A DNA stretch of 64,000 bases from Kiritimatiellia bacterium (GCA_017447805.1 JAFSMR010000001.1:36371-100370); one strand, 5' to 3'; positions 35,583 to 56,663 are shown, counted from the first letter of the stretch. Translations and numbers: made by a program. Notes: generated by a model not told the origin, from the sequence alone.

Positions 35583-37199
35583 TTACCATCTGAACGCTCC
35601 AAAACCGCCTTCCTTTTCTTCTTGCGCTGCGGGTTGCTGGCTAGCGGGGTCGCTCGAGCGCGATTTGATGCCGACGAGTTCTTCAACCTGCGAAAGATTA
35701 TACTCTATCTTCTGAAGTAATTCATCTTTCTTTTTCTTGTTCTCTGCCTCCCATTCTGCGGCGAATGCGGCTGATTTTTGCGCGAATAACTGCTTGTTTT
35801 CGGTCTTTTTAGTAGATATCTGTTCGTTGAGCGCGGCGATTTTCCGCTGATTTTCGTCTTTTAAGGCTTTGAGCTCGGATTCTTTGGCGGTGCGCTCTTG
35901 TCTAACCGCCTCTTCCTCGTCGGCGAGATCGCGAAGATGCGCTTCGCAATTCGCGATATTCAATTCGGTCTCCGCTATTCTCGCCTCAGTATCGGCCATG
36001 TTCCTTCTGATTCTTTCGGCGTTTCGGGGATTCTTGCCGAGCGAATTTTGCATGTTCGCGAGCGAACTTAAATCTTTATCCCTATTCTTCCGCGTCTTTT
36101 GGATTTTCGACTCTGTATTCTGCCTGTCTTTGGCAATTGCGCCGAGTTTCTCATCGTATGTATGCAGGGCGGAAATTTTCTGCACCCCTCTACGCCCGCG
36201 CACAAGCATAGGATCGGGGTCTATCGAGTTCAGCTGCTTTTCGAGTTCCTTTACGGGTGCTTCTAGTTCCTGTCGGCACTTCGCCTCGAATTGACGTTGT
36301 GCCTCGTTTCTGCGATTCTTCTCTCTATAGTTGAAATTCTCGATTTCGATCGAAAGTTTGTTTATTTCTTCCTCGCGCTCCTTAAGCTCGTCGAATTTCG
36401 AGTTGAATGTATCTACAGCGAGTCGCGCTTCTTGCGTGACGATTTCATTGCCGATAATATCTTTTCTCGTCACCTTGCGACCCCCTTTCTCTGCAGCGTT
36501 CAGCATCTCGCCAAGAACAGGCGCCTTATCCTCGCCAGAGAACGTAATCGCAACAATGTAGCCTTTCCTGCGGGCTGTCGATTCGCTCCAAATGCGTTCC
36601 TTGACTACAGCGCACGGTTTCTTGTAGATAATTTCATCGGCTTTTTCGGCCAACTTCGTCGGAACATATATTCCATCAGAATTCTTTGTTCTGTAGACTT
36701 CAACCGTTCCAGCCGCAAATTTAGGGGCGTTCATCATATTTCTCGCTATTTCAGGCAGTTCGCGCACGAGTTTCGGCGGCTTGTTGAGAAAATCTTTCGC
36801 ACCCTTTTGCAGGCGAAGGAATCTTTCTTCGTCGATTACGCTTCTCAAATTTGAAAAGTATCCGATTCCGTAGTTCTTCCGGATTACCAAATTGTTTTCT
36901 TCGAGAACCTTCGGGCTGGTATCCAGCGGATGGTAATATTTTTCGTTTGGATCAAACTCTGGATAATAGGTGCAGGTTATCTTTTCAAACGTTCCATGCA
37001 TAGGAAGCGCCTCCGTGGAAAGCTCGGCAGAGGCAATCTGGACACCTTTGAACCCGACGAAATCTCTCGAATATTTTCGCTCGATTTCGTCGAGCACGTA
37101 TTTTTCGGCAAATTCTCGCGGCTCTTTGTAGGTCTTTTTGCAGCCCGAAACAAGCGTCGTTGCGGCAATCAAGCTCAAAATCATATTCGAAATTTTCAT
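35583..37199 (-). CDS. lipoprotein with C-terminal coiled-coil region
   Basis: Lipobox LVSGC. C-terminal 250 aa are charged and heptad-rich (EEINKLSIEIENFNYREKNRRNEAQRQFEAK...). Confidence 0.5.
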   Translation of the reverse strand: MKISNMILSLIAATTLVSGCKKTYKEPREFAEKYVLDEIERKYSRDFVGFKGVQIASAELSTEALPMHGTFEKITCTYYPEFDPNEKYYHPLDTSPKVLEENNLVIRKNYGIGYFSNLRSVIDEERFLRLQKGAKDFLNKPPKLVRELPEIARNMMNAPKFAAGTVEVYRTKNSDGIYVPTKLAEKADEIIYKKPCAVVKERIWSESTARRKGYIVAITFSGEDKAPVLGEMLNAAEKGGRKVTRKDIIGNEIVTQEARLAVDTFNSKFDELKEREEEINKLSIEIENFNYREKNRRNEAQRQFEAKCRQELEAPVKELEKQLNSIDPDPMLVRGRRGVQKISALHTYDEKLGAIAKDRQNTESKIQKTRKNRDKDLSSLANMQNSLGKNPRNAERIRRNMADTEARIAETELNIANCEAHLRDLADEEEAVRQERTAKESELKALKDENQRKIAALNEQISTKKTENKQLFAQKSAAFAAEWEAENKKKKDELLQKIEYNLSQVEELVGIKSRSSDPASQQPAAQEEKEGGFGAFRW

Positions 37200-37299
37200 G
37201 TTTACGCCTTTCCTGCGATGTCCTTTTACAATTGCTTAGGAAACTTTGAAGGCAATTTCTGACAAAATTTTTCTTTTTTTATTTTTTTAACTTTCCCCC

Positions 37300-37329
37300 T
37301 TGACCTGGCACGGCGAAATATGGTATAAT
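37300..37329 (+). promoter_or_regulatory. tRNA operon promoter (TTGACC, 18-bp spacer, TGgTATAAT) with an upstream A/T-rich UP-like element
   Basis: ttttctttttttatttttttaactttcccccTTGACCtggcacggcgaaataTGgTATAATatg. Confidence 0.6.
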
Positions 37330-37351
37330 ATGTCCCGTTTTCGGCAAACAG

Positions 37352-37427
37352 GCGAGCTTAACTCAGTTGGTAGAGTGCCACCTTGCCAAGGTGGTTGTCG
37401 AGGGTTCGAGTCCCTTAGCTCGCTCCA
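37352..37427 (+). tRNA. tRNA-Gly (GCC)
   Basis: Cloverleaf folds: acceptor GCGAGCT/AGCTCGC; anticodon stem CCACC/GGTGG with loop TTGCCAA; T-loop GGTTCGAGTCC; encoded CCA. Confidence 0.9.
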
Positions 37428-37446
37428 ATCTCCGAAGCAGTGAAAT

Positions 37447-37523
37447 GGGGGCGTAGCTCAGCTGGCTAGAGCAAGTGACTCTTAATCACTGGGTCCAGGG
37501 TTCGAATCCCTGCGCCCCTACCA
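37447..37523 (+). tRNA. tRNA-Lys (CTT)
   Basis: Acceptor GGGGGCG/CGCCCCT; anticodon stem AGTGA/TCACT with loop CTCTTAA; T-loop GGTTCGAATCC; encoded CCA. Confidence 0.9.
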
Positions 37524-37531
37524 TTTAAACC

Positions 37532-37607
<76 letters not shown>

Positions 37608-37619
37608 AATCCAATCAAA

Positions 37620-37649
37620 CTCGGAGAGAACTCCGAGATTTTTTGTTTT
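37620..37649 (+). terminator. intrinsic terminator of the tRNA operon
   Basis: ctcggag-agaa-ctccgag followed by attttttgtttt. Confidence 0.8.
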
Positions 37650-37927
37650 ATGGATTTGCGCGTAAAGCCCAATTGTCGGGCTTGTTTTGATTTCTCCCAG
37701 TTCTCTTTCGTGTGTGCCACAGAATGCGTACCACGGCCTTTCTGGGGCTTTTCATCCCGCGAAGTATCTCCGCCGCGTGACTTTAGTCAACACGACGGTT
37801 TCAAGGGAAAACGCCCAATTCTTCCATTTTCTATGGAAACCACCTATCTGGTGTGCGCGTATCTTGTCATAGGCAGTTTGAGCCCAAAAGAGAACTCTGC
37901 GCCGCCAGAGTGTGCAAATGCACACAT

Positions 37928-37958
37928 TGCAAAATAGGCATGGCCGTAAGACCATGCC
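37928..37958 (-). terminator. intrinsic terminator at the end of the recombinase operon
   Basis: GGCATGG-ccgtaaga-CCATGCC. The minus-strand transcript continues with UAUUUUG. Confidence 0.5.
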
Positions 37959-37985
37959 TTGAGATGCTATGATTGTAGAATGAGG

Positions 37986-38420
37986 CTATGCCAGTCCAAT
38001 CTCCCGCTCCTGTTCGCTCCACAGGTCGCTCTTGATGTTGAAGAGCCTCTCCGTTGAGAAATCGTCGGGCAGCGTCTTGGCTATGACCGCCCGGAGGATC
38101 TTCGGCGAGAGGTTGGCGAGGCGCAGAACCCGAACCACATAGGGTCGATCCATCTTCAGCCCCTCTGCAAGCTCCTTCACGTCTCCAAACGCTCCGGTTT
38201 CAAGGAGTCGCGTCCACTCTCTGGCACGGGCGAAGAGCCGTATGAGCGTTCCTGATTCGTCTAGGTCGATGTCATTTACCTCTCCTTGTCCCGCAACAAC
38301 GAGTCGGCGGCGTCCGCAGACCGTCTGGAACCGGATTGGAATCGATACGAGAACATTCCCGTCCTCAGTTTCCATGATATTCATGCTTGAATTCCTCCAT
38401 GAGGCGTTTGTCGCCATCAA
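37986..38420 (-). CDS. hypothetical protein with ParB-like HTH segment
   Basis: 144 aa. DVKELAEGLKMDRPYVVRVLRLANLSPKILRAVI matches the spacing of the ParB/Noc HTH (ELAExLGxSRSxVxNxLRLLxLPxxV). Overlaps the recombinase 3' end by 56 nt in another frame. Confidence 0.4.
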   Translation of the reverse strand: MMATNASWRNSSMNIMETEDGNVLVSIPIRFQTVCGRRRLVVAGQGEVNDIDLDESGTLIRLFARAREWTRLLETGAFGDVKELAEGLKMDRPYVVRVLRLANLSPKILRAVIAKTLPDDFSTERLFNIKSDLWSEQEREIGLA

Positions 38421-39657
38421 TCTTGAACTTGATGTCGACGGATGATTCGTAGATTGTCACAGACTCGATAATCCTCGCCAGAAGATCGCGCTTGGCGACC
38501 GGTTCGAGGGATGTCCAGAACGTTTCCGGCGATTCGAGCTGCCGCCGCATCTCGAACGGCGAAATGCATCTTTCGGTCGCAAGCGCACGGAGCATCGTCG
38601 GCGTCTTCAGGAACTTGATCGCCTCCGCCTCCACAAGCGGTTCGATCAGCTGGGCGGGAACGGATTTCACCGTGCAGGTCGAGACGCCGCGCCTCATGTC
38701 CTTACGGCAGGAATAATAGCCGTAGCGGGTTCCGTTGCGGCTCTTGCCAGTCCAGGTGTATGAGAGCGCGTTGCCGCAGTGGCCGCAGCGGACGAGCCCC
38801 GTCAGGAGCGCCGGAGAGGAGATGCACCGCTCCGCCCTTGGCTTGACCTCGACGGCCTTAAGCCGCTCTGCTACCTTGTTCCACAGCTCCATGCTGACGA
38901 TAGGTTCGTGGACGCCCTTGAAGGATTCGCTCTTCAGCGGGACGCGTCCGATATACACGCAGTTGCGAAGCGCGGTTGCGACCATGACGGTGTCGAAAGG
39001 CTTGTCCCTCTCTGGGAAGCGCAGGATACCGTTTTCTGTTAGTCGCTTTGCGACGAGCTTTGGCGTTCCGAGTTCAAGATACCACTCGAATATCTTGATG
39101 ACATTGGGAGCTGTTTCGGGGTCGACCACCAGCCGCTTGTCGATGCGTTTGTAGCCGTATGGAACCGTACCGCCCGGCCAGAACCCCTTACGCCTTGTCG
39201 CGGCCATCTTGTCGTATGTGCGCTCGGAGGCAAGTTCCCGCTCGAACTGGGCAAAGGTCATGAGGAGGTTCATGCACATCCGCCCCATCGAGGTCGAGGT
39301 GTTCAGCTCCTGCGTTACGCACGAGAACGACACGTGGTGTTTCTCCAGCTCGTTGAAGACCTGGGTGAAGTCGAGGAGCGAACGCGAAAGACGGTCGATC
39401 TTGTAGCAGACAATCATGTCGATTTTGTCCGCTCTTACATCCTCCATCAGCCGCTGAAACGCCGGTCGCTTCAGATTGCCGCCGGAGTACCCTCCGTCAT
39501 CGTAATGGGTTTCAAGACAAACCCAACCCTCAAGGCGCTTCGCCGCGATGTACGACTCGCAGGCCATGCGCTGCGCGTCGAGGGTGTTGAACTCCTGTTC
39601 GAGGCCTTCTTCAACGCTCTTTCTCGTGTAGATTGCGCATCGAATCACTTGTTGCAT
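38365..39657 (-). CDS. large serine recombinase (resolvase-domain integrase)
   Basis: 430 aa. N-terminal catalytic domain with the nucleophile serine in AIYTRKS, followed by DRLSRS. Recombinase domain and C-terminal zinc ribbon (CGHCGNALSY...YYSCRK). Confidence 0.9.
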   Translation of the reverse strand: MQQVIRCAIYTRKSVEEGLEQEFNTLDAQRMACESYIAAKRLEGWVCLETHYDDGGYSGGNLKRPAFQRLMEDVRADKIDMIVCYKIDRLSRSLLDFTQVFNELEKHHVSFSCVTQELNTSTSMGRMCMNLLMTFAQFERELASERTYDKMAATRRKGFWPGGTVPYGYKRIDKRLVVDPETAPNVIKIFEWYLELGTPKLVAKRLTENGILRFPERDKPFDTVMVATALRNCVYIGRVPLKSESFKGVHEPIVSMELWNKVAERLKAVEVKPRAERCISSPALLTGLVRCGHCGNALSYTWTGKSRNGTRYGYYSCRKDMRRGVSTCTVKSVPAQLIEPLVEAEAIKFLKTPTMLRALATERCISPFEMRRQLESPETFWTSLEPVAKRDLLARIIESVTIYESSVDIKFKIDGDKRLMEEFKHEYHGN

Positions 39658-40097
39658 GGTGCGCCTCCCAGCCTGAAGAACTTGCGTCCTGAATAGTGCA
39701 TCCCCGTGATTTCCTTCACGCAGGCCGTGAGAGACGGGTAGAGCCGTCCTTCGTATTCAAACTGGTTGTACCCAGCCACCCTCACGGAAACAAGCCGCCC
39801 CTTGTACATCCGCGTGTAGGTTACCCCGCGTACTGCGGGGTTTGCCTTGCGCGATGCACGAGGGTTGGCTCTGGCGTCCTTGCGAATGACCCGCGAGAGG
39901 ATTTCGATTTCTGTAGGGGTAAGCCCGCCGAGGCGGTCTTCCTGCAGTTGCTGTGCAAGGCGGCGACGCATGAAGACGTCTCCGAATGTCGTTGAGCCGC
40001 CGAAACGGGAGAGATATTCGCTCTTCAGCGCTTCGTGGTCGAGCGCTGCAAGTCGGTCGATTGCCTGTCGAATATCGTCTTCCATTGGGCCTTTCAT
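39645..40097 (-). CDS. DUF2924 family protein (recombinase-associated)
   Basis: C-terminus VKEITGMHYSGRKFFRLGG matches the ITGxxWSGxxFFGL hallmark of DUF2924. Start set at the internal Met (MKGPMEDD) to avoid overlap with the upstream gene. The ORF track extends to 40289. Confidence 0.55.
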   Translation of the reverse strand: MKGPMEDDIRQAIDRLAALDHEALKSEYLSRFGGSTTFGDVFMRRRLAQQLQEDRLGGLTPTEIEILSRVIRKDARANPRASRKANPAVRGVTYTRMYKGRLVSVRVAGYNQFEYEGRLYPSLTACVKEITGMHYSGRKFFRLGGAPCNK

Positions 40098-40149
40098 ACG
40101 CTTCGACCGATATGATGCCGTAATCACGGGTGAATAGCAACCGGCTATT

Positions 40150-41226
40150 TCATCTTTTTTCATCGCTTTCACCTTCTTCTTGACGGTTTCTGCGCGGCGC
40201 GAATCCGAAATTCCGGCATATCTCGCGGAGTGGGCGCAACAAGTTGAACTTGAACGCCGAATAGGTAACGCCCATCTCCTTCGCGGCATCCTCTATGCTC
40301 AGCCCATCGAGGAAAAGCAAGTTGAACGCTTTTTCATATCGCTTCCCCCTGGGAGACGCAAGATAGTCCCTGAGAACCTGAATGTCCATGTTCTCGTCGC
40401 ACTCCCTGACGCTTTTCCGCCCGTCCTCTGCATGCTCGTCGAGATGCATCATGAACGATTCGGGGTCAAGTTCGCCGTCCGGCGTAACTGCGTAGATTGA
40501 AACGGTGAACAAATCGCCAAGCCGCTTGAGCGCATACCGCGAACGCTTCATGTCCAGCACCTTCATGCCAAGCGCGTTCTTGATGAACGTCAAAAGCGAA
40601 GCGGGTGAGCGTCCTTCATTGCCTGGGCGGGTCTCGTCGTATTTTGCCGCGAGAGACCAACAGGCATATTGCAGCGTGCGCTGGTAGTCATCGCGGTCAG
40701 CCTTGCAGTCCTGGATGCGTCCTTCCCGTATCGCGGACTGCGCCAGACAGTCGAACGTCTGCATCAGCTCTTTCTGGACTTCTTCGGAGAAGAGCATCTT
40801 CCTTACGGGCTTCTTTACCAGAGGAAAGAGCTTCTTGGCGAGTTCGCGGCGCTTTCGTGCCTCCTCCTCGGGCGAGAGATTCTCCTCCGGCTTGTGGAGC
40901 CACCACCTCTTCGACTGGTCCCTCCTGTTGGCTTTGTGTCCGTCTCCAAACAGCAGCAGCCATTCGGATAGATCTCTGACACCATTGGATGGATCGTCGT
41001 ATAGCTCCCGGTATGGATGCAGTGTTATCTTCTGCCCGTTGTCCTCGTAGGAGGATACCCATATGGATGAATGACTGCGCTTGCGATGGTTCTCGGTCAC
41101 TTTCGCTGGTGCCGGCATGAATCGCTTTGACGGCGAGACTATGACGCGATCAGGGAAATCGGCTTCCATCCGAAGCCGTCTCTGGTGATACGCTCGCCTT
41201 ATCTGGATAGGGATGGTGGTGGTCAT
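40150..41226 (-). CDS. sigma-70 region-4-like HTH protein (putative element regulator)
   Basis: 358 aa. C-terminal LDGLSIEDAAKEMGVTYSAFKFNLLR resembles sigma-70 region 4 / LuxR-type HTH. Acidic and basic helical N-terminal body. Confidence 0.45.
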   Translation of the reverse strand: MTTTIPIQIRRAYHQRRLRMEADFPDRVIVSPSKRFMPAPAKVTENHRKRSHSSIWVSSYEDNGQKITLHPYRELYDDPSNGVRDLSEWLLLFGDGHKANRRDQSKRWWLHKPEENLSPEEEARKRRELAKKLFPLVKKPVRKMLFSEEVQKELMQTFDCLAQSAIREGRIQDCKADRDDYQRTLQYACWSLAAKYDETRPGNEGRSPASLLTFIKNALGMKVLDMKRSRYALKRLGDLFTVSIYAVTPDGELDPESFMMHLDEHAEDGRKSVRECDENMDIQVLRDYLASPRGKRYEKAFNLLFLDGLSIEDAAKEMGVTYSAFKFNLLRPLREICRNFGFAPRRNRQEEGESDEKR

Positions 41227-41405
41227 ACCAGCACCGCCTTCCCGTTGACGATCCTGCAGGAGCGCTCGACGACCTCGTCGCGCAGAACCTTCTCCCCCGA
41301 ACCGTGCCGCAAGACAATGCGTTCACGGACTTTGATCGTCTTGTATTCATCACGCTTGCCGACGAAGTTAAGCTTCGCCGCCAGCTCATACATTGGCCAT
41401 GTCAT
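41223..41405 (-). CDS. small hypothetical protein (60 aa), translationally coupled to the sigma-like gene
   Basis: Stop overlaps the downstream start (ATGA). Confidence 0.3.
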   Translation of the reverse strand: MTWPMYELAAKLNFVGKRDEYKTIKVRERIVLRHGSGEKVLRDEVVERSCRIVNGKAVLV

Positions 41406-41540
41406 TTTCTTCCCTCCGCATTGCGCCGGGGGCGAATGCCCTCCATGTCGCGCTTGCGGAGAGAATTTTGCGGGTAATGAATCCGTTACCTAAATTTGCT
41501 TGTCATGGAATGCCAGAATGCGTCCAGTTGCCAAATGTCA

Positions 41541-41583
41541 AACAATGAGAAAGGCCGCTTGGATATTGTTCCAAGCGGCCTTT
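41541..41583 (-). terminator. 13-bp perfect inverted repeat hairpin (aaaggccgcttgg / ccaagcggccttt) downstream of the cargo operon
   Basis: Seen directly. Flanked by short direct repeats tccgttacct at 41488 and 41651. Confidence 0.45.
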
Positions 41584-41652
41584 CTGCCATCTGTGATGAT
41601 TATCTTGAAAAATGCGAAATCGCTATTGACACGGAAAATCGGTTACCATCCG

Positions 41653-42501
41653 TTACCTCTTTACGGGCTTAAGCGAAGCTGCTATCATGCGCTTCTTCTT
41701 TTTGATCTTAGTACGACGTGCGATGGTTTTCGACGATGTCCGATGTTGCCCCTCGACTTTTTGCCTAATGGTTGATATCTCGCGCCAGCCCCAATGGTTT
41801 GCAACTTCTCTAATCTTGAGGCATTCATCATACAAGGCACCTCCAGGCTTGGCATCCTTCATTATGTATTCCGCGACCGCAAAACGTCCGAACAGTTTGA
41901 GTTCTTTTCTGCGTTTCTTGAGAGCATTGCCTATCTCATGGGTAAACCGCTCGGCGGCGGAACGATCCTCAAAAATATCCTTTTCATCAAACAGATAGGA
42001 TGGGCGTCCGCATTTGTCTATGATTTCTCCCTTGGCATCGGCTATCGCCGCAATAATTCTGTCTTCAGGTGATGAGTGTGCGCCTGGGCAGGTGGCGTTG
42101 CTGTTACGACAATTGACTTCAGAGAGAGAAGGTACGCACTTTGTCGCCTCGTCCAAGTATTGACCTGAAATGGTCGTGTCGTTCAGCAAGAGCATGAAAC
42201 TGCGGTAGTTGAAGTCCAGCAGTTCTACGTCCTCCGGCTGGATTTCCCTGTCCTCCCACGGTTCGCAATGTCGGCAGAAGAAAGTGTACGACGGATTGTC
42301 TGCACTGCCATTTCTTGTGACGGATGCTCGCTCTCCGCATTCAGGGCAGCATATCTCGGACTTGAATTTGCCGTTGAACTTCAGCACGCCTCTTTCCACG
42401 AGCAGCAAGTCGTCTTTCTCAAGGAGATTGGCCGGGACTTGGAAGGCGCGGCAATTGCGCTCTTCCAGCTGGCATTTTATCAGTAGCAGGACACCGGTCA
42501 T
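41653..42501 (-). CDS. hypothetical protein with N-terminal C4 zinc ribbon and Lys/Arg-rich C-terminal tail (cargo gene 3)
   Basis: 282 aa. CCPECGERASVTRNGSADNPSYTFFCRHCEP. C-terminal KTIARRTKIKKKKRMIAASLKPVKR. No recognisable catalytic motif. GC about 51%. Confidence 0.5.
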   Translation of the reverse strand: MTGVLLLIKCQLEERNCRAFQVPANLLEKDDLLLVERGVLKFNGKFKSEICCPECGERASVTRNGSADNPSYTFFCRHCEPWEDREIQPEDVELLDFNYRSFMLLLNDTTISGQYLDEATKCVPSLSEVNCRNSNATCPGAHSSPEDRIIAAIADAKGEIIDKCGRPSYLFDEKDIFEDRSAAERFTHEIGNALKKRRKELKLFGRFAVAEYIMKDAKPGGALYDECLKIREVANHWGWREISTIRQKVEGQHRTSSKTIARRTKIKKKKRMIAASLKPVKR

Positions 42502-43784
42502 TTCCTGTACTCCCTGGCGAGGATTTCCTTCTTGTACTCGTTCTTGATCCCGTTCTCCGCCAGAAGATCCAGTATGAGCTTCTTGTGGCGCTCGTCGTTG
42601 CAGTTGTGGACAATGCTTCGCTCCGTGACCTTGGCAATGTATGTTTTCGTCTTGGCCTTGTCAGGCGTTGCGCCAATTTCAGTCATCACCTCCTGGACGA
42701 GACGACGTTCCTCAACATATATGTCTATCGTGAACTCCCACATTTTGGGCTTCCGCCACTCGATGGGGAATTTGGCGCATGACTCTTGGAGCCGGTCGAA
42801 GATATCGTCTGTCTTGCAGCGGTGTGTTAGTTCGTCTACGATTCCGCTGGAAGGGTTGGTGATTTCCAATGTCACACCACTAACTCTAGCGAGGGCTACT
42901 TGATTGGATGACACCTTCAACCGGAAATCGCGGGAGTACGTCGGATTGAACTTTGCTATTGGATACTCTTCAATTGGCTTGTCGATTATGTCGGTTGCCA
43001 GCATGAATTTCGCAAAGAGCTGGGCGATCCTCTTCGTCTGCGAGGCGCTGAAGAAGCACTTGATGCGGAAGAACGGCTGTGGTTCGCGGTAATAGATGAT
43101 TGTGAAGCCCTCGGCGTTGTGATCCAAGGCAAGCACGAACTTGCCTTCATCGTCGTACTGCTCCACGTTCTTTGGGAAAGCGTTTACATGAAACACGTAT
43201 CTGACGCAGTTTCCGAGGTCTTCCATGTCCGTGTGGACAAAGGACACCATCGTATGTTCGCGGGCCATGAACTTCAAGAACTCATCCTCGAACGCCTTTC
43301 GCTGGAGGTCGCTGGCTATGTCGCTGGGTGGTTGCGCCACATACTTCTTCTGCCCTCCAAGGCCGAAGGCAATCTTGATGATTGCGTTCTTTCGGAGGAA
43401 CTCCCACAGCTCTCGCATATTCAAGAACACCCATGAAACCATCTGGTGAATGTCGGGCCTCTCCGTTTGCCAGTCGCCAAACGCCTCCGAAAGCCGTCCG
43501 CTCTCCTTGATCTTGTCGATTATGTAGCGCCCTCTCTTCTGATCTCGGCAGACCGCATTGATATCGAACAGTAGCGTGCAGATTTCCGCAAAGCTCTTCT
43601 TGGCCGCTTCGTTTCCGTTTTTTGCAATGTTTGTCAATTCGACGCAAAGGTCGTCCTCGAACGTCTCCGAGAATTCAGACCAGTTGGTTTGAGTCTCGAC
43701 CTTGCAGACGTTGAACATCTGCTTGAGGTATTTTCTGCCAATAAGCTTCAGTAGTGTCTTTAACGCTGGTGCCGAATCTGCCAT
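42498..43784 (-). CDS. hypothetical 428-aa protein (cargo gene 2), no recognisable domain
   Basis: Overlaps the downstream gene by 4 bp (ATGA). GC about 49% against about 65% for the flanking phage genes. Confidence 0.5.
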   Translation of the reverse strand: MADSAPALKTLLKLIGRKYLKQMFNVCKVETQTNWSEFSETFEDDLCVELTNIAKNGNEAAKKSFAEICTLLFDINAVCRDQKRGRYIIDKIKESGRLSEAFGDWQTERPDIHQMVSWVFLNMRELWEFLRKNAIIKIAFGLGGQKKYVAQPPSDIASDLQRKAFEDEFLKFMAREHTMVSFVHTDMEDLGNCVRYVFHVNAFPKNVEQYDDEGKFVLALDHNAEGFTIIYYREPQPFFRIKCFFSASQTKRIAQLFAKFMLATDIIDKPIEEYPIAKFNPTYSRDFRLKVSSNQVALARVSGVTLEITNPSSGIVDELTHRCKTDDIFDRLQESCAKFPIEWRKPKMWEFTIDIYVEERRLVQEVMTEIGATPDKAKTKTYIAKVTERSIVHNCNDERHKKLILDLLAENGIKNEYKKEILAREYRK

Positions 43785-43814
43785 GCCCGCCTCCTGATTT
43801 TCATTGTTGCTTCA

Positions 43815-45116
43815 TCAGATTGCAGCCGGATCTAGCAGGAAGTCGTAGATGCTGATGTTCAGGACGCCGCTTTCGTCAAACCATTTCCGCCCGACGTCCT
43901 TTCGGACCACTACCTTGCGGAAGCTGTCGCCCGTTAGCGAGAACGGCTTGAGTTCCGACATGCGCTTCTCGTCCGTCGTCATTGCGTATGCCGACTGGAC
44001 GTACACCCGCTCGCCGGAACGGTTCACGACGAAGTCGATCTCGCGAACCTTGCGAACGGTCTTTCCCTGCGCGTCCTTTTCATATGACGTCACGACCCCC
44101 ACATCGACCGAGTACCCGCGCCGTACAAGTTCGTTGTAGATGATGTTCTCCATTATGTGCGTCTCCTCCTGCTGCCTGAAGCCGCACCTTGCGTTCCTCA
44201 AGCCGATGTCCTCGCAGTAGTACTTCTGCGGATAGTCGAAATAGGTGTGTCCCTTGACATCGTACCGCTTCGCCTCCGAGAACAGGAATGCGTCCTCAAG
44301 ATGGCCAATGTACGCCGCGACGGTCTTGACGGTCGCGGTCGCCCCCTGTTCTTCCGCAAGGGACTTTGCGATGTTGTTTGCGTTCGTGAGGGAACCTACG
44401 GACGAGCAGAGGAAGTCGAGTATGCGAGCCATCACATCGGGACGGTCGACGCGCTTGCGCTCTACGATGTCCTTGAGATAGACTTCGTCGAAAAGACGTT
44501 TCAGGTACTCCTCGCGGCTGGCATCGTTTGGGCGGGTGAGCGCAAAAGGCATGCCGCCGAAACGCATGTAGTCGTCAAGCGCGTCCCGCTTGTCCACGGA
44601 AACGGCCGAAAGATACTCGGCGAAGGATAGCGGATGGACTCGGATTTCGTCGCCCCGTCCGCGAAACTCCGTCTTGATGTCGGAAGAAAGCATCTTCGAG
44701 TTGGAACCCGTCACGTACACGTCAAGATTCTCCATGTGGAGAAAGCCGTTCAGGGCATCGTAGAACGTTATCTTCTCGCCCTCGGGAGAATGAGGGTTCG
44801 GAACCTTGTCGGACATCTGGATTTCGTCAATGAACAGGTAGCGCCTGTTGGTCGCGTTGCTCATCCATGAATCCACATGGGCGGAAAGCTCAAGAGGGTT
44901 CCTGAATCTTGCCGAATTGATGTCGTCGAGTTCTATCGTGAGAATGTCCTCTGGAAGAACACCGCTATCTATCAGGTGTCGCCGAAACAGGGTCTTCAGC
45001 AGATAAGACTTTCCACATCGCCTTATTCCCGTGATGACTTTGACCTGCCCGTTCCACATGAGTGAAATGAGCTTGTCGAGGTAGAAGTCTCTCTTTATCT
45101 CCTTGAAATTATCCAT
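43815..45116 (-). CDS. AAA+ ATPase (AAA_14) with C-terminal DUF4143 restriction-endonuclease-like domain (cargo gene 1)
   Basis: Walker A GIRRCGKS, Walker B LFIDEIQ. C-terminal EIDFVVNRSGERVYVQSAY is a PD-(D/E)XK-like core as in DUF4143. Confidence 0.75.
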   Translation of the reverse strand: MDNFKEIKRDFYLDKLISLMWNGQVKVITGIRRCGKSYLLKTLFRRHLIDSGVLPEDILTIELDDINSARFRNPLELSAHVDSWMSNATNRRYLFIDEIQMSDKVPNPHSPEGEKITFYDALNGFLHMENLDVYVTGSNSKMLSSDIKTEFRGRGDEIRVHPLSFAEYLSAVSVDKRDALDDYMRFGGMPFALTRPNDASREEYLKRLFDEVYLKDIVERKRVDRPDVMARILDFLCSSVGSLTNANNIAKSLAEEQGATATVKTVAAYIGHLEDAFLFSEAKRYDVKGHTYFDYPQKYYCEDIGLRNARCGFRQQEETHIMENIIYNELVRRGYSVDVGVVTSYEKDAQGKTVRKVREIDFVVNRSGERVYVQSAYAMTTDEKRMSELKPFSLTGDSFRKVVVRKDVGRKWFDESGVLNISIYDFLLDPAAI

Positions 45117-45128
45117 TCTTCGCTCCTA

Positions 45129-45230
45129 TTACACAGAAGTTTGGAGATATTATACCATATTCAAGGGTCGATAGTCAATGGGGGTAGTCGAAACTTGCTG
45201 CGTTTTACACAGAAGATTGGAAGATAATAA
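45129..45230. repeat. two 26-bp direct repeats (ttacacagaagNttggaNataNtaNa, 22/26 identical) in the divergent intergenic region between the cargo operon and the phage early genes
   Basis: 45129-45154 and 45205-45230, each followed by a cgaaacttgct-like motif. Confidence 0.7.
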
Positions 45231-45308
45231 ATTTAGATTTTTGCCACGCCGAACTTGCTCATGTTTCCCGTATATGATAGTAGCCACTCAAGTGGCGGAA
45301 AGGAAACC

Positions 45309-46133
45309 ATGAACAACATCCTCCCATTCTTTGCGGACATACCCGCAGACGAGTACCACCAGGCGGCGAGGGACGGGAAATTCCTGTCTAGCCACCTCCT
45401 CGGGGACTTCAGGAAAAGCCCGAGGCTCTACCGCAAGAAGATGACGGGCGAGATCGCGCCGGAGGACACGGCGGCTTTCCTTACTGGACGCGCCGTCCAT
45501 ACGCTCATCTTGGAAGGTCGCACCAAGTTCGACGAGGAGTTCCTCGTCTCGGACGGGCCGGTGAACCCCAAGACGGGCGAGTCGTTCGGCAAGCTCACGA
45601 AGGCATACAAGGAGTGGGCGGCGGCACAGACGAAGGACGTCGTTTCGGGCTCGGACTTCAACTTCATGTCGCAGCTCCAGCAGAGCGTCTGGACGCATCC
45701 CATCGCCAGCCTCCTGCTCGACGACGGCGTTGCCGAGCAGACCGTCCGCACGACCTATTTCGGCGTCGCCTGCCAAATCAGAATGGACTGGTTCCGCGCC
45801 GACTACGAGGGGCGTCCCGTCATCTGCGACCTAAAGACCTGCGAGACGCTCGACTGGTTCGAGAGCGACGCGAGACGCTTTGGCTATCCCGCACAGGCGG
45901 CGTTCTACCGCGAAGTCCTGCGCACGGCGAGCGACGGCGAGGTCGTCGCCGACTGCTATCTTCTGGCAATTGAAAAGCGCGAGCCGTTCCGCTGCGGAGT
46001 GTGGAAGCTCACGGACGGCATCCTCGAAGCGTGCGCCGTGGAGAACGAGCGCGCGATTGCGGAACTCGCCGAGTGCCGCCGGACGAACGTCTGGCCGACG
46101 AAGACTGAGGACTTGCGCTTCCTCGACGTGTAG
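45309..46133 (+). CDS. PD-(D/E)XK family phage nuclease (Cas4/RecB-like, DUF3799-type exonuclease)
   Basis: Motif VICDLKT in a typical D...(D/E)xK arrangement. Start at the internal ATG after GGAAAGGAAACC. The ORF track starts at 45255. Confidence 0.6.
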   Translation: MNNILPFFADIPADEYHQAARDGKFLSSHLLGDFRKSPRLYRKKMTGEIAPEDTAAFLTGRAVHTLILEGRTKFDEEFLVSDGPVNPKTGESFGKLTKAYKEWAAAQTKDVVSGSDFNFMSQLQQSVWTHPIASLLLDDGVAEQTVRTTYFGVACQIRMDWFRADYEGRPVICDLKTCETLDWFESDARRFGYPAQAAFYREVLRTASDGEVVADCYLLAIEKREPFRCGVWKLTDGILEACAVENERAIAELAECRRTNVWPTKTEDLRFLDV

Positions 46134-46226
46134 GACGCAAACGGCAATCCACTTCAAACTGGCGGGCGGTGCTTCACCGTCCGCCTTTTTCATGCACACA
46201 CAAAAACCGAAGAAAGGAAAAGAGAC

Positions 46227-46976
46227 ATGGGCAACCTGCTCGATTCGATAACAACGGGACGCCAGCCGCAACCGCCCCGCATCATGATCTACGGCTCAGA
46301 GGGAGTCGGAAAATCGACCTTTGCGGCATCCGCCCCGAAGCCCGTCTTCGTGCAAACCGAGGACGGGCTCTCAGAGATCGACACGGCGAAGTTCCCGCTC
46401 TGCGCGACATACGCGGACGTGGTGGAGCAGCTCAAGGCCGTCCGCGACGGCGAGCACGACTTCCAGACGCTGTGCCTCGACTCTTTGGACTGGCTTGAGC
46501 GTCTCATCTGGGACCGCGTCTGCCAGGACTATGGGGTCAAGTCCATCGAAAAGGCCGACGGCGGCTACGGCAAGGGCTACACCTACGCTCTCACCTACTG
46601 GCGCGAGATAGTGAAGCTCCTGAACGAGATCCGCGCCAAGCGCCAGATGGCGGTGATCCTCGTCGCCCACGCGAAGGTGGAGCGCTTCGAGGACCCGGAG
46701 CATCCAGCATACGACCGCTACCAGCCGCGTCTCCACAAGGCGGCGAACTCGCTGATCTGCGAGTGGGCGGACGCGGTACTCTTCGCGACCCGCAGGATGC
46801 GCGTCGACTCGACGACCGGCAAGGCCGCTCCAGTCGGCGCTGACGGCGGCGAGCGCGTCATCCGCACCAACGGCTCTCCCGCGTTCAACGCGAAGAACCG
46901 CTTTTCGCTTCCCACGGAGATGGCTCTCTCGTGGACGGCCTTCATGGACGGCATGAAGGTCGGCTCGAAGAAGTAA
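46227..46976 (+). CDS. Sak4-like (AAA_24) RecA-fold phage recombination ATPase
   Basis: Walker A GSEGVGKST, Walker B CLDSLD. Size and context (followed by DUF669 and RusA). Confidence 0.75.
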   Translation: MGNLLDSITTGRQPQPPRIMIYGSEGVGKSTFAASAPKPVFVQTEDGLSEIDTAKFPLCATYADVVEQLKAVRDGEHDFQTLCLDSLDWLERLIWDRVCQDYGVKSIEKADGGYGKGYTYALTYWREIVKLLNEIRAKRQMAVILVAHAKVERFEDPEHPAYDRYQPRLHKAANSLICEWADAVLFATRRMRVDSTTGKAAPVGADGGERVIRTNGSPAFNAKNRFSLPTEMALSWTAFMDGMKVGSKK

Positions 46977-52010: not shown

Positions 52011-52287
52011 TGGAGCGAAAAAGCCGACCGCTCGGGCAACCGAAAGAGGCCGATGACGAGGCCCCGAAAACCGCCCGAACGGTCGACGGCGGACATTGTG
52101 CCATAACCCGCACGACAAGTCAACCGCCCGAATCGGGAAATAACGGCTCGGGTCGGGCGGGGTGGGACGTAACGTCCCTGCGAGGCTACGGTTCCTCCCT
52201 GCCCCCTCTCAAAGGCAGGGCGCGGGAAGGAGCGCAACTCCAGGACAGACTTTCTTTCCCGACGACGTAATTTTCAAGGAGGTAAAA

Positions 52288-54516
52288 ATGCAAGGAAAAC
52301 AAGATGAAATGACCTATGCAACCGTGTGTTCGGGAATCGAGTGCATGAGCGCAGCGGTAGCGCCGCTCGGCGGCTGGAAGCCGGTGTTCTTCAGTGAGAT
52401 CGAGCCGTTCCCGTGTTCGCTACTGAAGCACCGGTACCCGACGGTTCCAAACCTTGGGGACATGACGAAAATCACAGCCGAGAAGATCGGCGAAGAGAAA
52501 TGGAGGATCACAAATGGAACAGATGTCATTGAACTTGCCGGGCGTCTCGGCTGTCTCGCCGGCGGCACGCCGTGCCAGGACGTGTCGGTCGCGGGGAAGC
52601 GCGCGGGCATGGCCGAAGGGAGCGGAACCCGCTCCAGCCTTGCCTTCCACTTTGCAAGGCTTTGTCGAGAGCTACAACCCAGATGGGTGCTTTGGGAGAA
52701 CGTTCCGGGAGTTCTCACCTCAAACGGAGGACGCGACTTCGCGCACTTCGTCAAGTCGATTGGGGAATGCGGGTATTCTCTTGCCTACAGGACTTTGGAC
52801 GCTCAATGGGTGCGAGTGGACGGGCTGCCCCGCGCAGTTCCACAGAGACGCCGGCGTGTGTGGCTTGTCGGACATCTTGGAGACAGTTGGCGAACACCTG
52901 CGGAAGTACTGTTTGAGCCTCAAGGCGTGCGCGGGGATACTCCGCCGTGCCGCATCGCGGGGCAAGGATTTACCAGCGAGACTGGCGGCGGCGCTGAAGG
53001 CGCAGATCGCCCGGTTCCAACGAACTCAAACGGCGGCGACGTGATGCCCGCCCTCACCGCGCGGGACTTGGAGGCGCGGATGACCGGGCAGGCTGATCGC
53101 TCGGGCGGATACGTCATGCAGCCGTCGGGCTTCGACCCCTACGAGCCTGGCGGCGTCAAGTCGGACAGTCCAGAAGTCTCGGGCGCTCTCGTCAATGGCT
53201 CTTCGCCGGGTTTCCACAACGCGGTGTGCTTTGAGAACCACCAGACGGATGCAAGGACGACGGAGGTTGATGTCGCCCCGACTATGGGTGCAACGCACAA
53301 CGCGCAGGCGGCGAACAACAACCCGCTTGTCGTTGTGCCGACCGACGTGTTCGGCAAGGTCGCGCACGCCATGAACAAGAACGGCGACGGCGAGAAATAC
53401 GCGAAGATCGAGGTCGCCGAGACGAGAAACACATTCTCGAATTCGGAGGCGCGGACACAGGAAGTTGTCGTGCAGCCCAAGGACGGCGTAGTAGCCATCG
53501 ACATGGACAAGAACAAGCCGACGAACGCCGACAAGCCTGTCCGCAAGGGCGGCGCTGGATTTGGCGTCTCGGAGAAAGGCGCGTCCTACACGCTCACGGC
53601 GAGAGACCAGCACGCGGTCGCATACGCCATCGACTCTATGGGGTCCAACGCGATGAAGTCGAAGAACCCGAAGAGCGGATGTCGGGAGGTTGAGTGTGCG
53701 CCGACTCTGACGACGGTCGATTCCGCGCCGGTCAAGCACCAGGGCGGCACAGCGGTCGTGGCGTTCCTTCCGGGCAACTCCAAGAAGGCTCGTTCCATCG
53801 CCGCCGACGAGGAGGTTTCGCCTACGCTCATGCGGACGCAGGGCGAGAGCGGCAACAAGGTCGCTGTAGCGACGGAGTGCGTCGGCGTGTTCGACATGGA
53901 GGCAGGGAAGTCGAGCGGTCGGGCGGACACGTCCGGCGTTTCGCCCACGATCCTCGCGTTGCACGGCACAGACCCGCACGCGGTGTGCATCGGCTTCAAC
54001 GCGGAACCGGGAACGCACGTCCAGACCCCGCACGACAACCTTGGCGACACCCTCGCTGTGAGCCACAAGTGCGGCGTCGCAATCGGCCTCGACCGCGCCT
54101 CGTTCAACCAGGGGAAGAACGCGAAGTTCGGCTTCTCGGTCGAAGAGGAATGTGCGCCCACGGTCGTGTCCAAGGGACCTGGCGCGGTCTCGTTCGAGCC
54201 GGGGATCGCCAAGCGCGAGGGAGCGTCGCACCGCTTCTCGGACGAGGTGACGTCGACGCTGCGCTCCGACATGGGCGACAACCTCCCGGCGGTCGCCGTG
54301 GACTACATCGTCCGCCGCCTGACCCCGCTCGAGTGCGAAAGGCTCCAGGGGCTGCCGGACGGATACACGCTGATTCCGCATCGCGGGAAGCCTGCGGAGG
54401 AGTGTCCCGACACGCCAAGGTACAAGGCGCTGGGCAACGGCTGGGCGGTCAACTGCGCCCGCTGGATATGCCAGCGAATCCAGAAACACGAACAGGAGAA
54501 CACACATGGAAACTAA
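52288..54516 (+). CDS. DNA (cytosine-5)-methyltransferase with an exceptionally long (about 470 aa) reiterated variable region; candidate multispecific MTase
   Basis: Motif I CSGIE, motif IV GGTPCQDVSVAG, motif VI ENVPG, motif VIII QRRRRVWLVG, C-terminal motifs IX/X (RRLTPLECERLQGLPDGYT, GNGWAVN). Start at the ATG after AAGGAGG. Confidence 0.85.
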   Translation: MQGKQDEMTYATVCSGIECMSAAVAPLGGWKPVFFSEIEPFPCSLLKHRYPTVPNLGDMTKITAEKIGEEKWRITNGTDVIELAGRLGCLAGGTPCQDVSVAGKRAGMAEGSGTRSSLAFHFARLCRELQPRWVLWENVPGVLTSNGGRDFAHFVKSIGECGYSLAYRTLDAQWVRVDGLPRAVPQRRRRVWLVGHLGDSWRTPAEVLFEPQGVRGDTPPCRIAGQGFTSETGGGAEGADRPVPTNSNGGDVMPALTARDLEARMTGQADRSGGYVMQPSGFDPYEPGGVKSDSPEVSGALVNGSSPGFHNAVCFENHQTDARTTEVDVAPTMGATHNAQAANNNPLVVVPTDVFGKVAHAMNKNGDGEKYAKIEVAETRNTFSNSEARTQEVVVQPKDGVVAIDMDKNKPTNADKPVRKGGAGFGVSEKGASYTLTARDQHAVAYAIDSMGSNAMKSKNPKSGCREVECAPTLTTVDSAPVKHQGGTAVVAFLPGNSKKARSIAADEEVSPTLMRTQGESGNKVAVATECVGVFDMEAGKSSGRADTSGVSPTILALHGTDPHAVCIGFNAEPGTHVQTPHDNLGDTLAVSHKCGVAIGLDRASFNQGKNAKFGFSVEEECAPTVVSKGPGAVSFEPGIAKREGASHRFSDEVTSTLRSDMGDNLPAVAVDYIVRRLTPLECERLQGLPDGYTLIPHRGKPAEECPDTPRYKALGNGWAVNCARWICQRIQKHEQENTHGN

Positions 54517-55765
54517 CAGGATGAAGGTCGTGAACGTCCCCGTCTCGGAGATCATTCCCTACGAGAACAACCCGCGTATCAACGAGGGCGCGGTCGAGCA
54601 GCTGGCGAACATAATCGCCACCCTCGGCTTCAGGAATCCCGCCGTCCTCAACAAGGACAAGGTCATCATCGAGGGTCACACGCGCCTTCTCGCCGTGAAG
54701 AAGCTCGGCTGGGAGACGATGCCCTGCATCATCGCCACCGACCTGACGCCGGAGCAGGAACAGGCCTTGCGCATCGCCGACAACAAGATTGCTGAAATCG
54801 CGGAGTGGGACGAGGACAAGCTCAAGGTCGAACTCGCCGCGTTGCAGGAGGCGGGGTTCGACCTTTCGCTTCTCGCCTTTGGCGACGACGAGCTGGACGA
54901 CCTTTTGGGCGGCGAGGCGGGGACGCACGGCGAGACGGAGCCTGACGCGGTTCCCGAGACGCCGGAGATTCCCGTCTCGACCCCTGGCGAAGTCTACCAG
55001 CTCGGAAAGCACCTCCTCGTCTGCGGAGACTCGACGAAGCCCAACGACGTCGACAAGGTGTGCAAGGCGGACGAGGCGAACCTCTGGCTCACGGACCCGC
55101 CGTACAACGTGGACTACCACGGCTCGGACGGACAGTCGATCCAGAACGACTCGATGGAGGACACGAAGTTCCGCGAGTTCCTTCGCGCGGCGTTCGGCTG
55201 CGCGGAGAAGCGCCTCAAGCCGGGCGGCTCGTTCTACATCTTCCACGCGGATTCCGAGGGCTACAACTTCCGGGGAGCGTGCTTTGACGTGGGGCTTAGC
55301 GTGAGGCAATGCCTCGTCTGGAAGAAGAATTCGCTCGTCCTCGGACGGCAGGACTACAAGTGGATTCACGAACCCTGCCTCTACGGTTGGCGCGAGGGGG
55401 CGGCGCACGACTGGTACTCCGACTGTTCGCAGACGACAGTTATGGAGTTCAACAAGCCGAAGAAGAACGACCTCCACCCGACGATGAAGCCCGTCGAGAT
55501 GCTGTGCTACCTGATCGGCAATTCGTCGAAGCGCGGCGACATCGTCCTCGACACGTTCTGCGGTAGTGGCTCGACGCTCATCGCCTGCGAGAGGACGGGT
55601 CGCGTGTGTAGGGCCGTCGAACTCGACCCGAAATACTGCGACGTAATCCGCAAGAGGTGGGCGGAGTTCGTGCATGGGGAGGGATGCGATTGGCAATCGC
55701 TGACTCCCGTCGTCGGCACATCACCGGCGCCAGAAGCGGAGGATGCACACGATGAAGGTGCTTGA
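54506..55765 (+). CDS. ParB/Srx-like nuclease domain fused to N6-adenine/N4-cytosine DNA methyltransferase
   Basis: N-terminal ParB-like region (IIEGHTRLLAVKKLGW). MTase motif IV DPPY (LWLTDPPYNVDYHG). C-terminal FxGxG-type AdoMet motif DTFCGSGST. Confidence 0.8.
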   Translation: METNRMKVVNVPVSEIIPYENNPRINEGAVEQLANIIATLGFRNPAVLNKDKVIIEGHTRLLAVKKLGWETMPCIIATDLTPEQEQALRIADNKIAEIAEWDEDKLKVELAALQEAGFDLSLLAFGDDELDDLLGGEAGTHGETEPDAVPETPEIPVSTPGEVYQLGKHLLVCGDSTKPNDVDKVCKADEANLWLTDPPYNVDYHGSDGQSIQNDSMEDTKFREFLRAAFGCAEKRLKPGGSFYIFHADSEGYNFRGACFDVGLSVRQCLVWKKNSLVLGRQDYKWIHEPCLYGWREGAAHDWYSDCSQTTVMEFNKPKKNDLHPTMKPVEMLCYLIGNSSKRGDIVLDTFCGSGSTLIACERTGRVCRAVELDPKYCDVIRKRWAEFVHGEGCDWQSLTPVVGTSPAPEAEDAHDEGA

Positions 55766-56570: not shown

Positions 56571-56588
56571 TCGACATTGACATGTCGA
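56571..56588. promoter_or_regulatory. operator-like palindrome TCGACAT-tgac-ATGTCGA upstream of the phage metK
   Basis: Seen directly. Overlaps a TTGACA hexamer. Confidence 0.3.
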
Positions 56589-56663
56589 GGATCCACACTA
56601 TCGGGCGACACTCTACGACAAACCAGCAAACCGCCCCGCAAAATCGGGGCAGAAAGGCGAAAA

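Follow-up and report, generated by a model that had tools for sequence, protein, structure and literature searches.

Three co-directional genes occupy positions 41,653 to 45,116 on the minus strand of a 64,000-nucleotide (nt) stretch from a Kiritimatiellia bacterium (GCA_017447805.1 JAFSMR010000001.1:36371-100370), referred to below as the window. The element carrying them is a prophage of a temperate phage, and the locus raises the question whether the three genes act as one defence system, as a first-pass annotation proposed for this NTPase and its two partners, or whether a different unit lies within the block. In the comparisons presented here, the conserved unit is the pair formed by the second and third genes, encoding proteins of 428 and 282 amino acids (aa), and not the three-gene set. 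On this sequence evidence the block consists of two evolutionarily independent cassettes, the ATPase gene and the pair, which appear to be transcribed together. The three genes are as follows.

43815-45116, minus strand: gene of the 433-aa ATPase, called as an open reading frame (ORF)
42498-43784, minus strand: gene of the 428-aa protein, called as an ORF; the product is modelled with an N-terminal helical domain and two alpha/beta domains, in the RdgC/CENP-N/CENP-L/Chl4 fold class
41653-42501, minus strand: gene of the 282-aa protein, called as an ORF

These coordinates and the junctions between the genes agree with the first-pass annotation. A 30-nt spacer separates the first two genes, with an AGGAGG ribosome-binding site six bases before the ATG of the 428-aa gene, and the second and third genes are joined by an ATGA stop/start overlap (...AGG AAA TGA / ATG ACC).

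Conservation of the gene pair and of the ATPase gene

The family of the 428-aa protein is small. A total of 16 relatives were found at 90% clustering among 5.8 billion proteins and 39 among 1.84 billion representatives, and a third homolog search with a wide alignment gained one further protein. The relatives of the locus, numbered with the prefix L, are known solely from metagenomes and one Clostridiales metagenome-assembled genome, which holds the one pair locus found in the genome collection. Searching deposited phages and plasmids by tblastn with the 428-aa protein gave nothing, and neither did scans of IMG/VR with three alignments of the family.

The gene neighbourhoods were examined at 12 loci (the window, L001, L007, L008, L015, L018, L019, L023, L024, L026, L027 and L031). 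An overlapping partner gene is present downstream of the 428-type gene at every one of them, with an overlap of 4 bp in eleven and of 11 bp in L019, and the pair is retained down to ~18-21% identity of the 428-type protein. Conservation of the neighbourhood, suggested earlier as a check on the three-gene unit, holds for the pair at 12 of 12 loci and fails for the ATPase gene, which is confined to the closest clade. Most full-length members of the 428-aa family, very distant ones included, end in an arginine and a lysine before the stop codon (EYRK, VIRK, LTRK, KVRK etc.), and the 428-type stop overlaps the partner ATG in most loci examined; the tail may denote a constraint of translational coupling or a functional C-terminal motif.

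Five lineages were distinguished by their genetic organization. In lineage (a), the window clade (at least 87% identity), the order is ATPase gene, 428-aa gene, partner gene of 282/286 or 413 aa, 60-aa gene, sigma-like gene, DUF2924 gene and recombinase gene. Lineage (b), a clade with 64-66% identity, occupies the same prophage slot with a partner of 409 aa and carries a 148-160-aa protein without family in place of the ATPase. In lineage (c), a clade with 50% identity, the pair is carried by a different small element, where genes for a DNA methylase and an HNH_2 protein immediately precede it and a DUF3987 gene comes next; L001-L006 are elements of the type with methylase and HNH_2 before the pair, and L002 has a second HNH/methylase pair and AbiEi/AbiEii within 7 kb. 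Another context at 50% identity, lineage (d), has a ParB_N gene downstream of the pair. Lineage (e) comprises the very distant subfamilies (18-21% identity) of L019, where the pair comes after an XRE repressor and an M78 peptidase, and L024, where UmuD/UmuC adjoin it. Modules of UmuD/UmuC and of ImmA-like peptidase/XRE repressor are both responsive to DNA damage.

The ATPase and the pair occur together in lineage (a) only, the arrangement of the window being conserved in L007, L015, L016 and L031. The ATPase is absent from the pair contexts of L008, L009, L018 and L027, which have the 148-160-aa protein, and from those of L001-L006, L019-L022, L024 and L026, which have other neighbours. The 148-160-aa protein is encoded by the first gene at positions 3273-3719 of L008, 481-963 of L018 and 443-919 of L027, in the last case with a 4-bp overlap with the 428-type gene, and in the 64-66% clade the pair may include it as a third component.

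The ATPase belongs to a catalogued family. As the first-pass annotation had it, the 433-aa protein contains AAA_14 (PF13173, E 3.6e-28) followed by DUF4143 (PF13635, E 1.2e-17), with Walker A GIRRCGKS at residue 30 and Walker B YLFIDE at residue 93. Contrary to the expectation that PADLOC would give no match, it was assigned to PDC-S01 (COG1373; model PDLC04787, E 5.6e-112), residues 5-429 aligning with profile positions 9-408 of 412, and six more PDC-S01 models match it too. PDCs are single-gene candidates obtained by 'guilt-by-embedding'; PDC-S01, an ATPase fused to a PD-(D/E)XK domain, is the fourth most common defence call in prokaryotes, and most PDCs are still unvalidated, the anti-phage activity of PDC-S01 included (PMC12988326). 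DUF4143 itself has been placed in the PD-(D/E)XK superfamily (PMC3424549). A homolog with 62% identity stands alone on a Vescimonas fastidiosa plasmid, between pilin/sortase and conjugation-type genes, and 230 plasmid records match the ATPase. The 433-aa protein is a catalogued, independent single-gene defence candidate and the ordinary part of the block. Given this independence and its association with the pair only in the clade of at least 87% identity, the proposal of one system made of an NTPase and two partners is not supported.

Alignment of five ATPase homologs, down to 31% identity, shows that Walker A and B, E323, E359-I-D361-F, Y372-x-Q374 and E388 are invariant. The third nuclease motif of this subfamily is YxQ-x-A, and no conserved lysine is evident after it in the five homologs at the position expected for (D/E)xK in the superfamily. 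Nuclease activity is therefore not to be assumed, and the residues 359-374 suggest that the PD-(D/E)XK domain may be non-canonical or inactive.

The remaining two genes represent a real family that is rare, tightly coupled and not described in the libraries or literature searched, in agreement with the initial impression that the combination is not a described system.

The 428-aa protein and its zinc-ribbon partner

Neither protein of the pair belongs to a Pfam, NCBIfam, PHROG or PADLOC family. Pfam searches with 32 members of the 428-aa family gave one unrelated match at chance level (E 0.006) and no credible domain, and the family profile had 0 matches to PDB sequences at E up to 10. Structural modelling was more informative. 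A first AlphaFold2 model of the 428-aa protein from 15 close sequences had a predicted local distance difference test (pLDDT) of 64.5 and was discarded for a 32-sequence model with pLDDT 87.7 and a predicted template-modelling score (pTM) of 0.69. The modelled architecture consists of an N-terminal helical domain (~residues 8-141) and two alpha/beta domains. Foldseek against PDB ranked Chl4 first, with RdgC also among the matches; against viral models the top matches were unnamed or uncharacterised phage proteins, rank 5 being the 'Recombination-associated protein' of Hafnia phage Enc34. The sequence identity to the structures of RdgC, YejK/NdpA and CENP-N/CENP-L is 3-9% and the global TM-scores are low. 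From the model, the 428-aa protein thus falls into the RdgC/CENP-N/CENP-L/Chl4 fold class, as a resemblance of fold in which homology is not demonstrated. The earlier statement that the two proteins have no recognisable domains is right at the sequence level and has to be revised for the predicted structure of the 428-aa protein.

Lambda RexA has been reported to possess a 'RexA/RdgC/IML3/CHL4 fold' and to bind DNA non-specifically; it is a prophage exclusion protein that also biases the lysis-lysogeny (CI/Cro) switch, with a mechanism described as still unresolved, and RdgC limits RecA strand exchange and RecA-dependent LexA cleavage (PMC11077077). Sequence homology of the 428-aa protein to lambda RexA was considered and rejected, hhalign of the 32-sequence profile giving a probability of 0.3%. 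Near-invariance across the wide family is limited to W118, R195, P204 and F257, and no invariant acidic or histidine residue is present. So small a number of invariant residues argues against an enzyme.

The partner can be divided into two parts with opposite charge.

42112-42501, minus strand: N-domain of the 282-aa protein (~aa 1-130, boundary approximate), an acidic C4 zinc-ribbon domain accompanying the 428-aa family
41653-42111, minus strand: C-module of the 282-aa protein (~aa 131-282), a basic swappable cassette with a lysine/arginine tail

The isoelectric point is 4.65 for the N-domain, 9.9 for the C-terminal part and 12 for the tail. The N-domains (~125 residues) of the partners are homologous, with E 2e-10 between the window and L024, E 2e-15 between L001 and L024, and E 2e-10 to 1e-34 overall; the exception among the 12 loci is L019, whose partner has no BLAST match to other N-domains and a degenerate cysteine pattern. 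Members of the close family keep C52/C55/C76/C79 and the VELLDFNYR motif, and in distant subfamilies the cysteine pairs are partly swapped for histidine. The C4 zinc ribbon and basic tail read from the sequence in the first pass are thereby substantiated.

The likeness of the ribbon to IS1/IS1595 transposases, suggested at the same time, is below threshold: Zn_ribbon_InsA reaches E 0.071 and 13.3 bits against a cut-off of 26.1, and no transposase domain was found in Pfam or NCBIfam, so that the protein is not an IS transposase. A PHROG transposase match has E 0.008 and covers residues 49-80 alone. A ZAS-type anti-sigma motif (HxxxCxxC) is not present in the 282-aa protein by eye.

L015 and L016 are ~90% identical to the window from the ATPase gene through the 428-aa gene up to about codon 127 of the partner, and ~95% identical again from the 60-aa gene on. 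Between those stretches lies unrelated sequence, which results in a partner of 413 aa. At least four C-terminal types were recognized: the window type, an 'EGW...WRII' type (the 409/413-aa partners and L026), the L001 type, and a helix-turn-helix (HTH) type, which is supported in L024 by an HTH_23 match above the cut-off (26.9 bits) and in L019 by a weak match. By sequence comparison, the 282-aa protein is a mosaic of a conserved N-domain and an exchangeable C-terminal cassette. The window C-module has no family or structure match. An HTH in it is plausible by eye, yet Pfam at E up to 5, a PDB profile search and an hhalign comparison with the HTH partner of L024 all failed to support it. The module is 47% identical (E 7e-46) to the C-terminal half of a 340-aa protein encoded in the Lamassu operons of the sister prophages L010-L014.

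The prophage slot and the operon signals

The placement of the block between an integration module and early genes, claimed in the first pass, is borne out by gene annotation. To the left, reading outward, lie a 60-aa gene, a 358-aa protein with sigma-70 region 4, a DUF2924 protein, a large serine recombinase and tRNA-Gly/Lys/Phe; an Rfam scan of 37000-46500 detected these three tRNAs and nothing else. To the right are a DUF3799 nuclease-like gene, an AAA_24 gene, a helicase ORF whose counterpart in L007 is a DEAD/ResIII helicase, a Prim-Pol primase, three DNA methylases, an S-adenosylmethionine synthetase, a large terminase and a lambda-type portal. In the deposited phage collection no close relative of the backbone was found, the matches being confined to methylase fragments. 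Two backbone genes border the slot.

41223-41405, minus strand: 60-aa backbone gene, left border of the slot, 58-59% identical in L010 and L018 whatever their cargo
45255-46133, plus strand: DUF3799 PD-(D/E)XK-like early gene, right border of the slot (Pfam E 3.8e-28)

Blastn similarity to the relatives restarts outside the block on both sides, at 41223-41492 on the left (L010-L014) and at ~45297-45338 on the right (L008, L010-L012, L014 and L018). The nucleotide identity between the window and L010-L014 is ~69-73% on the DUF3799 side, where this lies on the contig, and ~71% on the 60-aa side. L010-L014 have the identical slot, flanked by the DUF3799 gene at one end and by the 60-aa, sigma-like, DUF2924 and recombinase genes at the other, and their cargo is a complete Lamassu system: LmuA, LmuC and LmuB were detected by PADLOC with E 6.8e-12, 1.1e-4 and 2.4e-106, in agreement with Pfam CTD7, MC3 and LmuB_C. 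The slot is a genuine prophage defence hotspot, and its occupancy by Lamassu is the strongest support for the first-pass view of the block as accessory cargo at such a site. The slot between the DUF3799 gene and the 60-aa and sigma-like genes is also usable for mining further cargo in this prophage family.

The sister Lamassu operon (L010-L014, e.g. L011 2931-7403) closes with the additional 340-aa gene, which has a 4-bp overlap and is outside the PADLOC Lamassu set. The C-terminal half of its product is the module of the window 282-aa protein, and its N-terminal 190 aa are without family. The common C-module may be a shared accessory or regulatory domain that ties different cargo to this phage backbone.

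The signals around the block are the following.

45149-45178, minus strand: predicted promoter of the cargo operon (TTGACT, 18 nt, TG-n-TATAAT), with 11/12 consensus matches and an extended -10 TG
41548-41585, minus strand: intrinsic-terminator-like hairpin closing the operon, a perfect 16-bp stem with 9 G-C pairs, then CATTGTTTGA
45129-45145, minus strand: operator-like repeat copy 1 (TCCAAACTTCTGTGTAA), just downstream of the -10
45205-45221, minus strand: operator-like repeat copy 2 (TCCAATCTTCTGTGTAA), upstream of the -35 and overlapping a weak rightward promoter-like site

No internal terminator was found between the three cargo genes. The single near-consensus promoter and the single strong terminator indicate that the three genes form one transcription unit. 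The ratio of nonsynonymous to synonymous substitution rates (dN/dS) relative to L007, an 81%-identical relative, is 0.05 for the 433-aa gene, 0.085 for the 428-aa gene and 0.16 for the 282-aa gene, and is alike in both halves of the last. Such low values denote purifying selection, and all three are therefore functional genes. The guanine-cytosine (GC) contents of the three genes are 54.8%, 51.1% and 50.4%, respectively. The early genes of the right flank have 62-64%, the recombinase module on the left 55-57%, and the host part of the window 50.7%. The contrast of about 50% with about 65% in the flanking phage genes, noted in the first pass, accordingly applies to the right flank and not to the left, with the genes themselves spanning 50.4-54.8%.

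The 17-nt direct repeat TCCAA[A/T]CTTCTGTGTAA occurs in exactly two copies in the 64-kb window, against 0.02 expected, and the copies are 76 bp apart. Both copies and the ~75-bp spacing are kept in L007 and L031. The repeat (motif TCCAANCTTNTGTGTAA) was not found in the compared intergenic regions of relatives with other first genes or cargo. Its being part of the ATPase cassette elsewhere was rejected, the Vescimonas ATPase locus being without it. The two repeats bracket the leftward promoter and are candidate operators. Note that the extended -10 of the cargo promoter (AATATGGTATAATATCTCC, 45143-45161, minus strand) is identical at 18 of 19 positions to 37317-37335 (plus strand), 17 nt upstream of the host tRNA-Gly, with 0.007 such pairs expected by chance in the 8.1-kb stretch; these may be two strong consensus promoters, or the cargo promoter may have been copied from the host one.

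Two further observations concern the backbone. The serine recombinase of 430 aa (38365-39657, minus strand) overlaps a 144-aa ORF (37986-38420, minus strand) that resembles, by eye, the C-terminal extension of the 580-aa recombinases in L008 and L018; the split also occurs in L007 and L031 (431 + 132 aa) and can be read as a conserved split gene or as a programmed frameshift. The early/middle genes at 52162-54516, 54506-55765, 56577-57689 and 60822-61913 (plus strand) encode three DNA methyltransferases (two C5, one N6/N4) and the S-adenosylmethionine synthetase, which may constitute an anti-restriction self-methylation package.

Possible roles of the pair and comparison with known systems

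We tentatively favour, at somewhat less than even confidence, that the pair is an accessory, non-enzymatic, Rex-like module that binds DNA and excludes phages. The 428-aa protein would assemble into a horseshoe or clamp and bind DNA irrespective of its sequence, by analogy with RdgC, RexA and Iml3-Chl4, and the partner would dock on it via the zinc-ribbon domain. The variable basic C-domain of the partner, which has an HTH in two distant subfamilies, would set the nucleic-acid target. Acting without catalysis, the complex could occupy or sequester the DNA of a superinfecting phage or of replication and recombination intermediates, and the pair would be carried for the benefit of the lysogen. 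Exclusion is supported by Lamassu in the sister slot, by PDC-S01 in the same operon, and by methylase, HNH and Abi genes near the pair in L001-L006. L010-L014 are without the pair, so it is dispensable for the backbone and hence accessory, and its GC content of 50-51% differs from both flanks. Moreover, a rare and patchy family with a C-cassette swap between ~90%-identical relatives displays the variation typical of conflict systems. If the pair does exclude phages, it would be an enzyme-free defence module built on the fold class of RexA, and the RexA/RdgC-class fold would serve phage-host conflict outside Proteobacteria, in gut Clostridia.

Several points weigh against this explanation. No recognisable effector or toxin domain was found in the pair with the domain libraries, no sequence link to RexA was detected, RexA is not among the top structural matches of the 428-aa model, and there is no RexB-like membrane partner. 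A regulatory module would account at least equally well for the sigma-like gene that follows the pair in three of five lineages, possibly four, and for the XRE repressor and M78 peptidase before the pair in L019. The predicted promoter is also bracketed by the putative operators.

It is possible, though we would regard it with some doubt, that the pair is a two-gene anti-phage system interchangeable with Lamassu, in which a clamp of RexA/RdgC fold is directed by an adaptor whose targeting or effector C-domain is swapped by recombination. Such a system would be related in principle to lambda Rex, but soluble and independent of the membrane, and would offer a second tractable entry to how RdgC-fold proteins sense or block phage DNA. 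The swappable C-domains of the partner would then be a natural experiment in the exchange of target specificity.

The strongest competitor to an exclusion function is a regulatory module of the mobile element, where a DNA-binding complex together with a sigma-like factor would control lysogeny, excision or late transcription, in analogy to RexA biasing the lambda CI/Cro switch. The relevant neighbour was overlooked in the first-pass annotation.

40150-41226, minus strand: 358-aa sigma-70 region-4-like protein (Sigma70_r4_2 E 1.8e-5, Sigma70_ECF E 1.7e-4), recurrent downstream neighbour of the pair

Downstream of the pair lies a sigma-like gene in window-type and L008-type loci (Sigma70_r4_2/ECF), in L019 (Sigma70_r2 E 8.9e-9) and in L024 (Sigma70_r4_2); in L026, a 189-aa protein weakly matches region 2 of two sigma factors (E 0.014 and 0.007). 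The sigma-like proteins of the window type and of L024 can be aligned over 125 columns (hhalign E 5.6e-4), though the 428-aa homologs share ~21% identity. Retention of this neighbour across such divergence suggests a functional link, and a regulatory role is to be taken seriously. The HTH at the C-terminus of the partner in L024, and weakly in L019, points in the same direction, as do the position of the L019 pair between the XRE repressor/M78 peptidase and the sigma gene, the lack of an enzymatic domain in either pair protein, and the reported modulation of the lambda switch by RexA (PMC11077077). However, L010-L014 keep the sigma-like, 60-aa, DUF2924 and recombinase genes without the pair, and the backbone thus does not need it. 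The partner C-domain of L015 and L016 differs despite the ~95% identical adjacent backbone, which is odd for a regulator of backbone promoters, and a terminator-like hairpin lies between the pair and the 60-aa and sigma-like genes. In L001 the 258-aa follower, tried as a sigma-like candidate, has no sigma similarity, and the window C-module has no detectable HTH. We consider a regulatory role doubtful on balance; if it is correct, the pair would represent a new kind of lysogeny or excision control module. A Vescimonas zinc-finger/sigma pair was also inspected and rejected as relatives of the window genes.

An integrated system of all three genes, with the ATPase as motor or effector and the other two as sensor or adaptor subunits, appears improbable. 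The common promoter and terminator as predicted, the 30-nt spacer without internal terminator, the arrangement kept in L007, L015, L016 and L031, and the purifying selection on each gene are in its favour. However, the co-occurrence goes no further than a single shallow clade, with 87% identity or more in the 428-aa protein, the 64-66% clade has the 148-160-aa protein for the ATPase and all more distant contexts are without this ATPase, and the ATPase family is catalogued as a single-gene candidate that is very abundant alone. It is hardly probable, finally, that the pair damps or tunes host RecA-dependent recombination or the SOS response, prophage induction included, by analogy with RdgC, since the RdgC-class fold, the reported reduction of RecA strand exchange and RecA-dependent LexA cleavage by RdgC (PMC11077077), and the UmuD/UmuC (L024) or ImmA-like M78 peptidase and XRE repressor (L019) beside the pair are offset by the restriction of such neighbours to two contexts, by the lack of a Pfam or PDB sequence match to RdgC, and by the swappable C-domains that are left unexplained.

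Returning to the Rex-like exclusion module, the comparison with lambda Rex reveals both likeness and difference. Both are prophage-borne accessory modules of two genes on the side divergent from the early lytic genes, and the modelled fold class of the 428-aa protein is the one assigned to RexA (PMC11077077). However, the protein has 428 aa against 279 of RexA, with an extra N-terminal helical domain, and RexB is a polytopic membrane protein whereas the partner here is a soluble zinc-ribbon protein. No transmembrane segment was predicted by hydropathy in any of the three proteins, the maximum Kyte-Doolittle score over 19 residues being 0.49 for the 282-aa protein and 0.49-1.06 overall. RdgC and YejK/NdpA, bacterial DNA-binding proteins linked to recombination or the nucleoid, and the eukaryotic CENP-N/CENP-L (Chl4/Iml3) pair resemble the 428-aa protein at the fold level only, without membership in the Pfam or NCBIfam RdgC families, and they are without a counterpart of the obligate zinc-ribbon partner. 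Lamassu, which belongs with the ABC-3C systems, shares the prophage slot in L010-L014 and a homologous C-module in its last gene, but PADLOC, whose models do match the sister-phage proteins, found no LmuA, LmuB or LmuC among the proteins of the window block, and the block has no SMC-like ATPase. The 433-aa protein has the same two-domain architecture as PDC-S01, with a nearly end-to-end match to the model, and differs from that family solely by its place as the first gene of an operon with the pair. The fold class in which the 428-aa protein is placed and the kind of genomic setting were already known; the pair family is new as far as the libraries and papers searched go.

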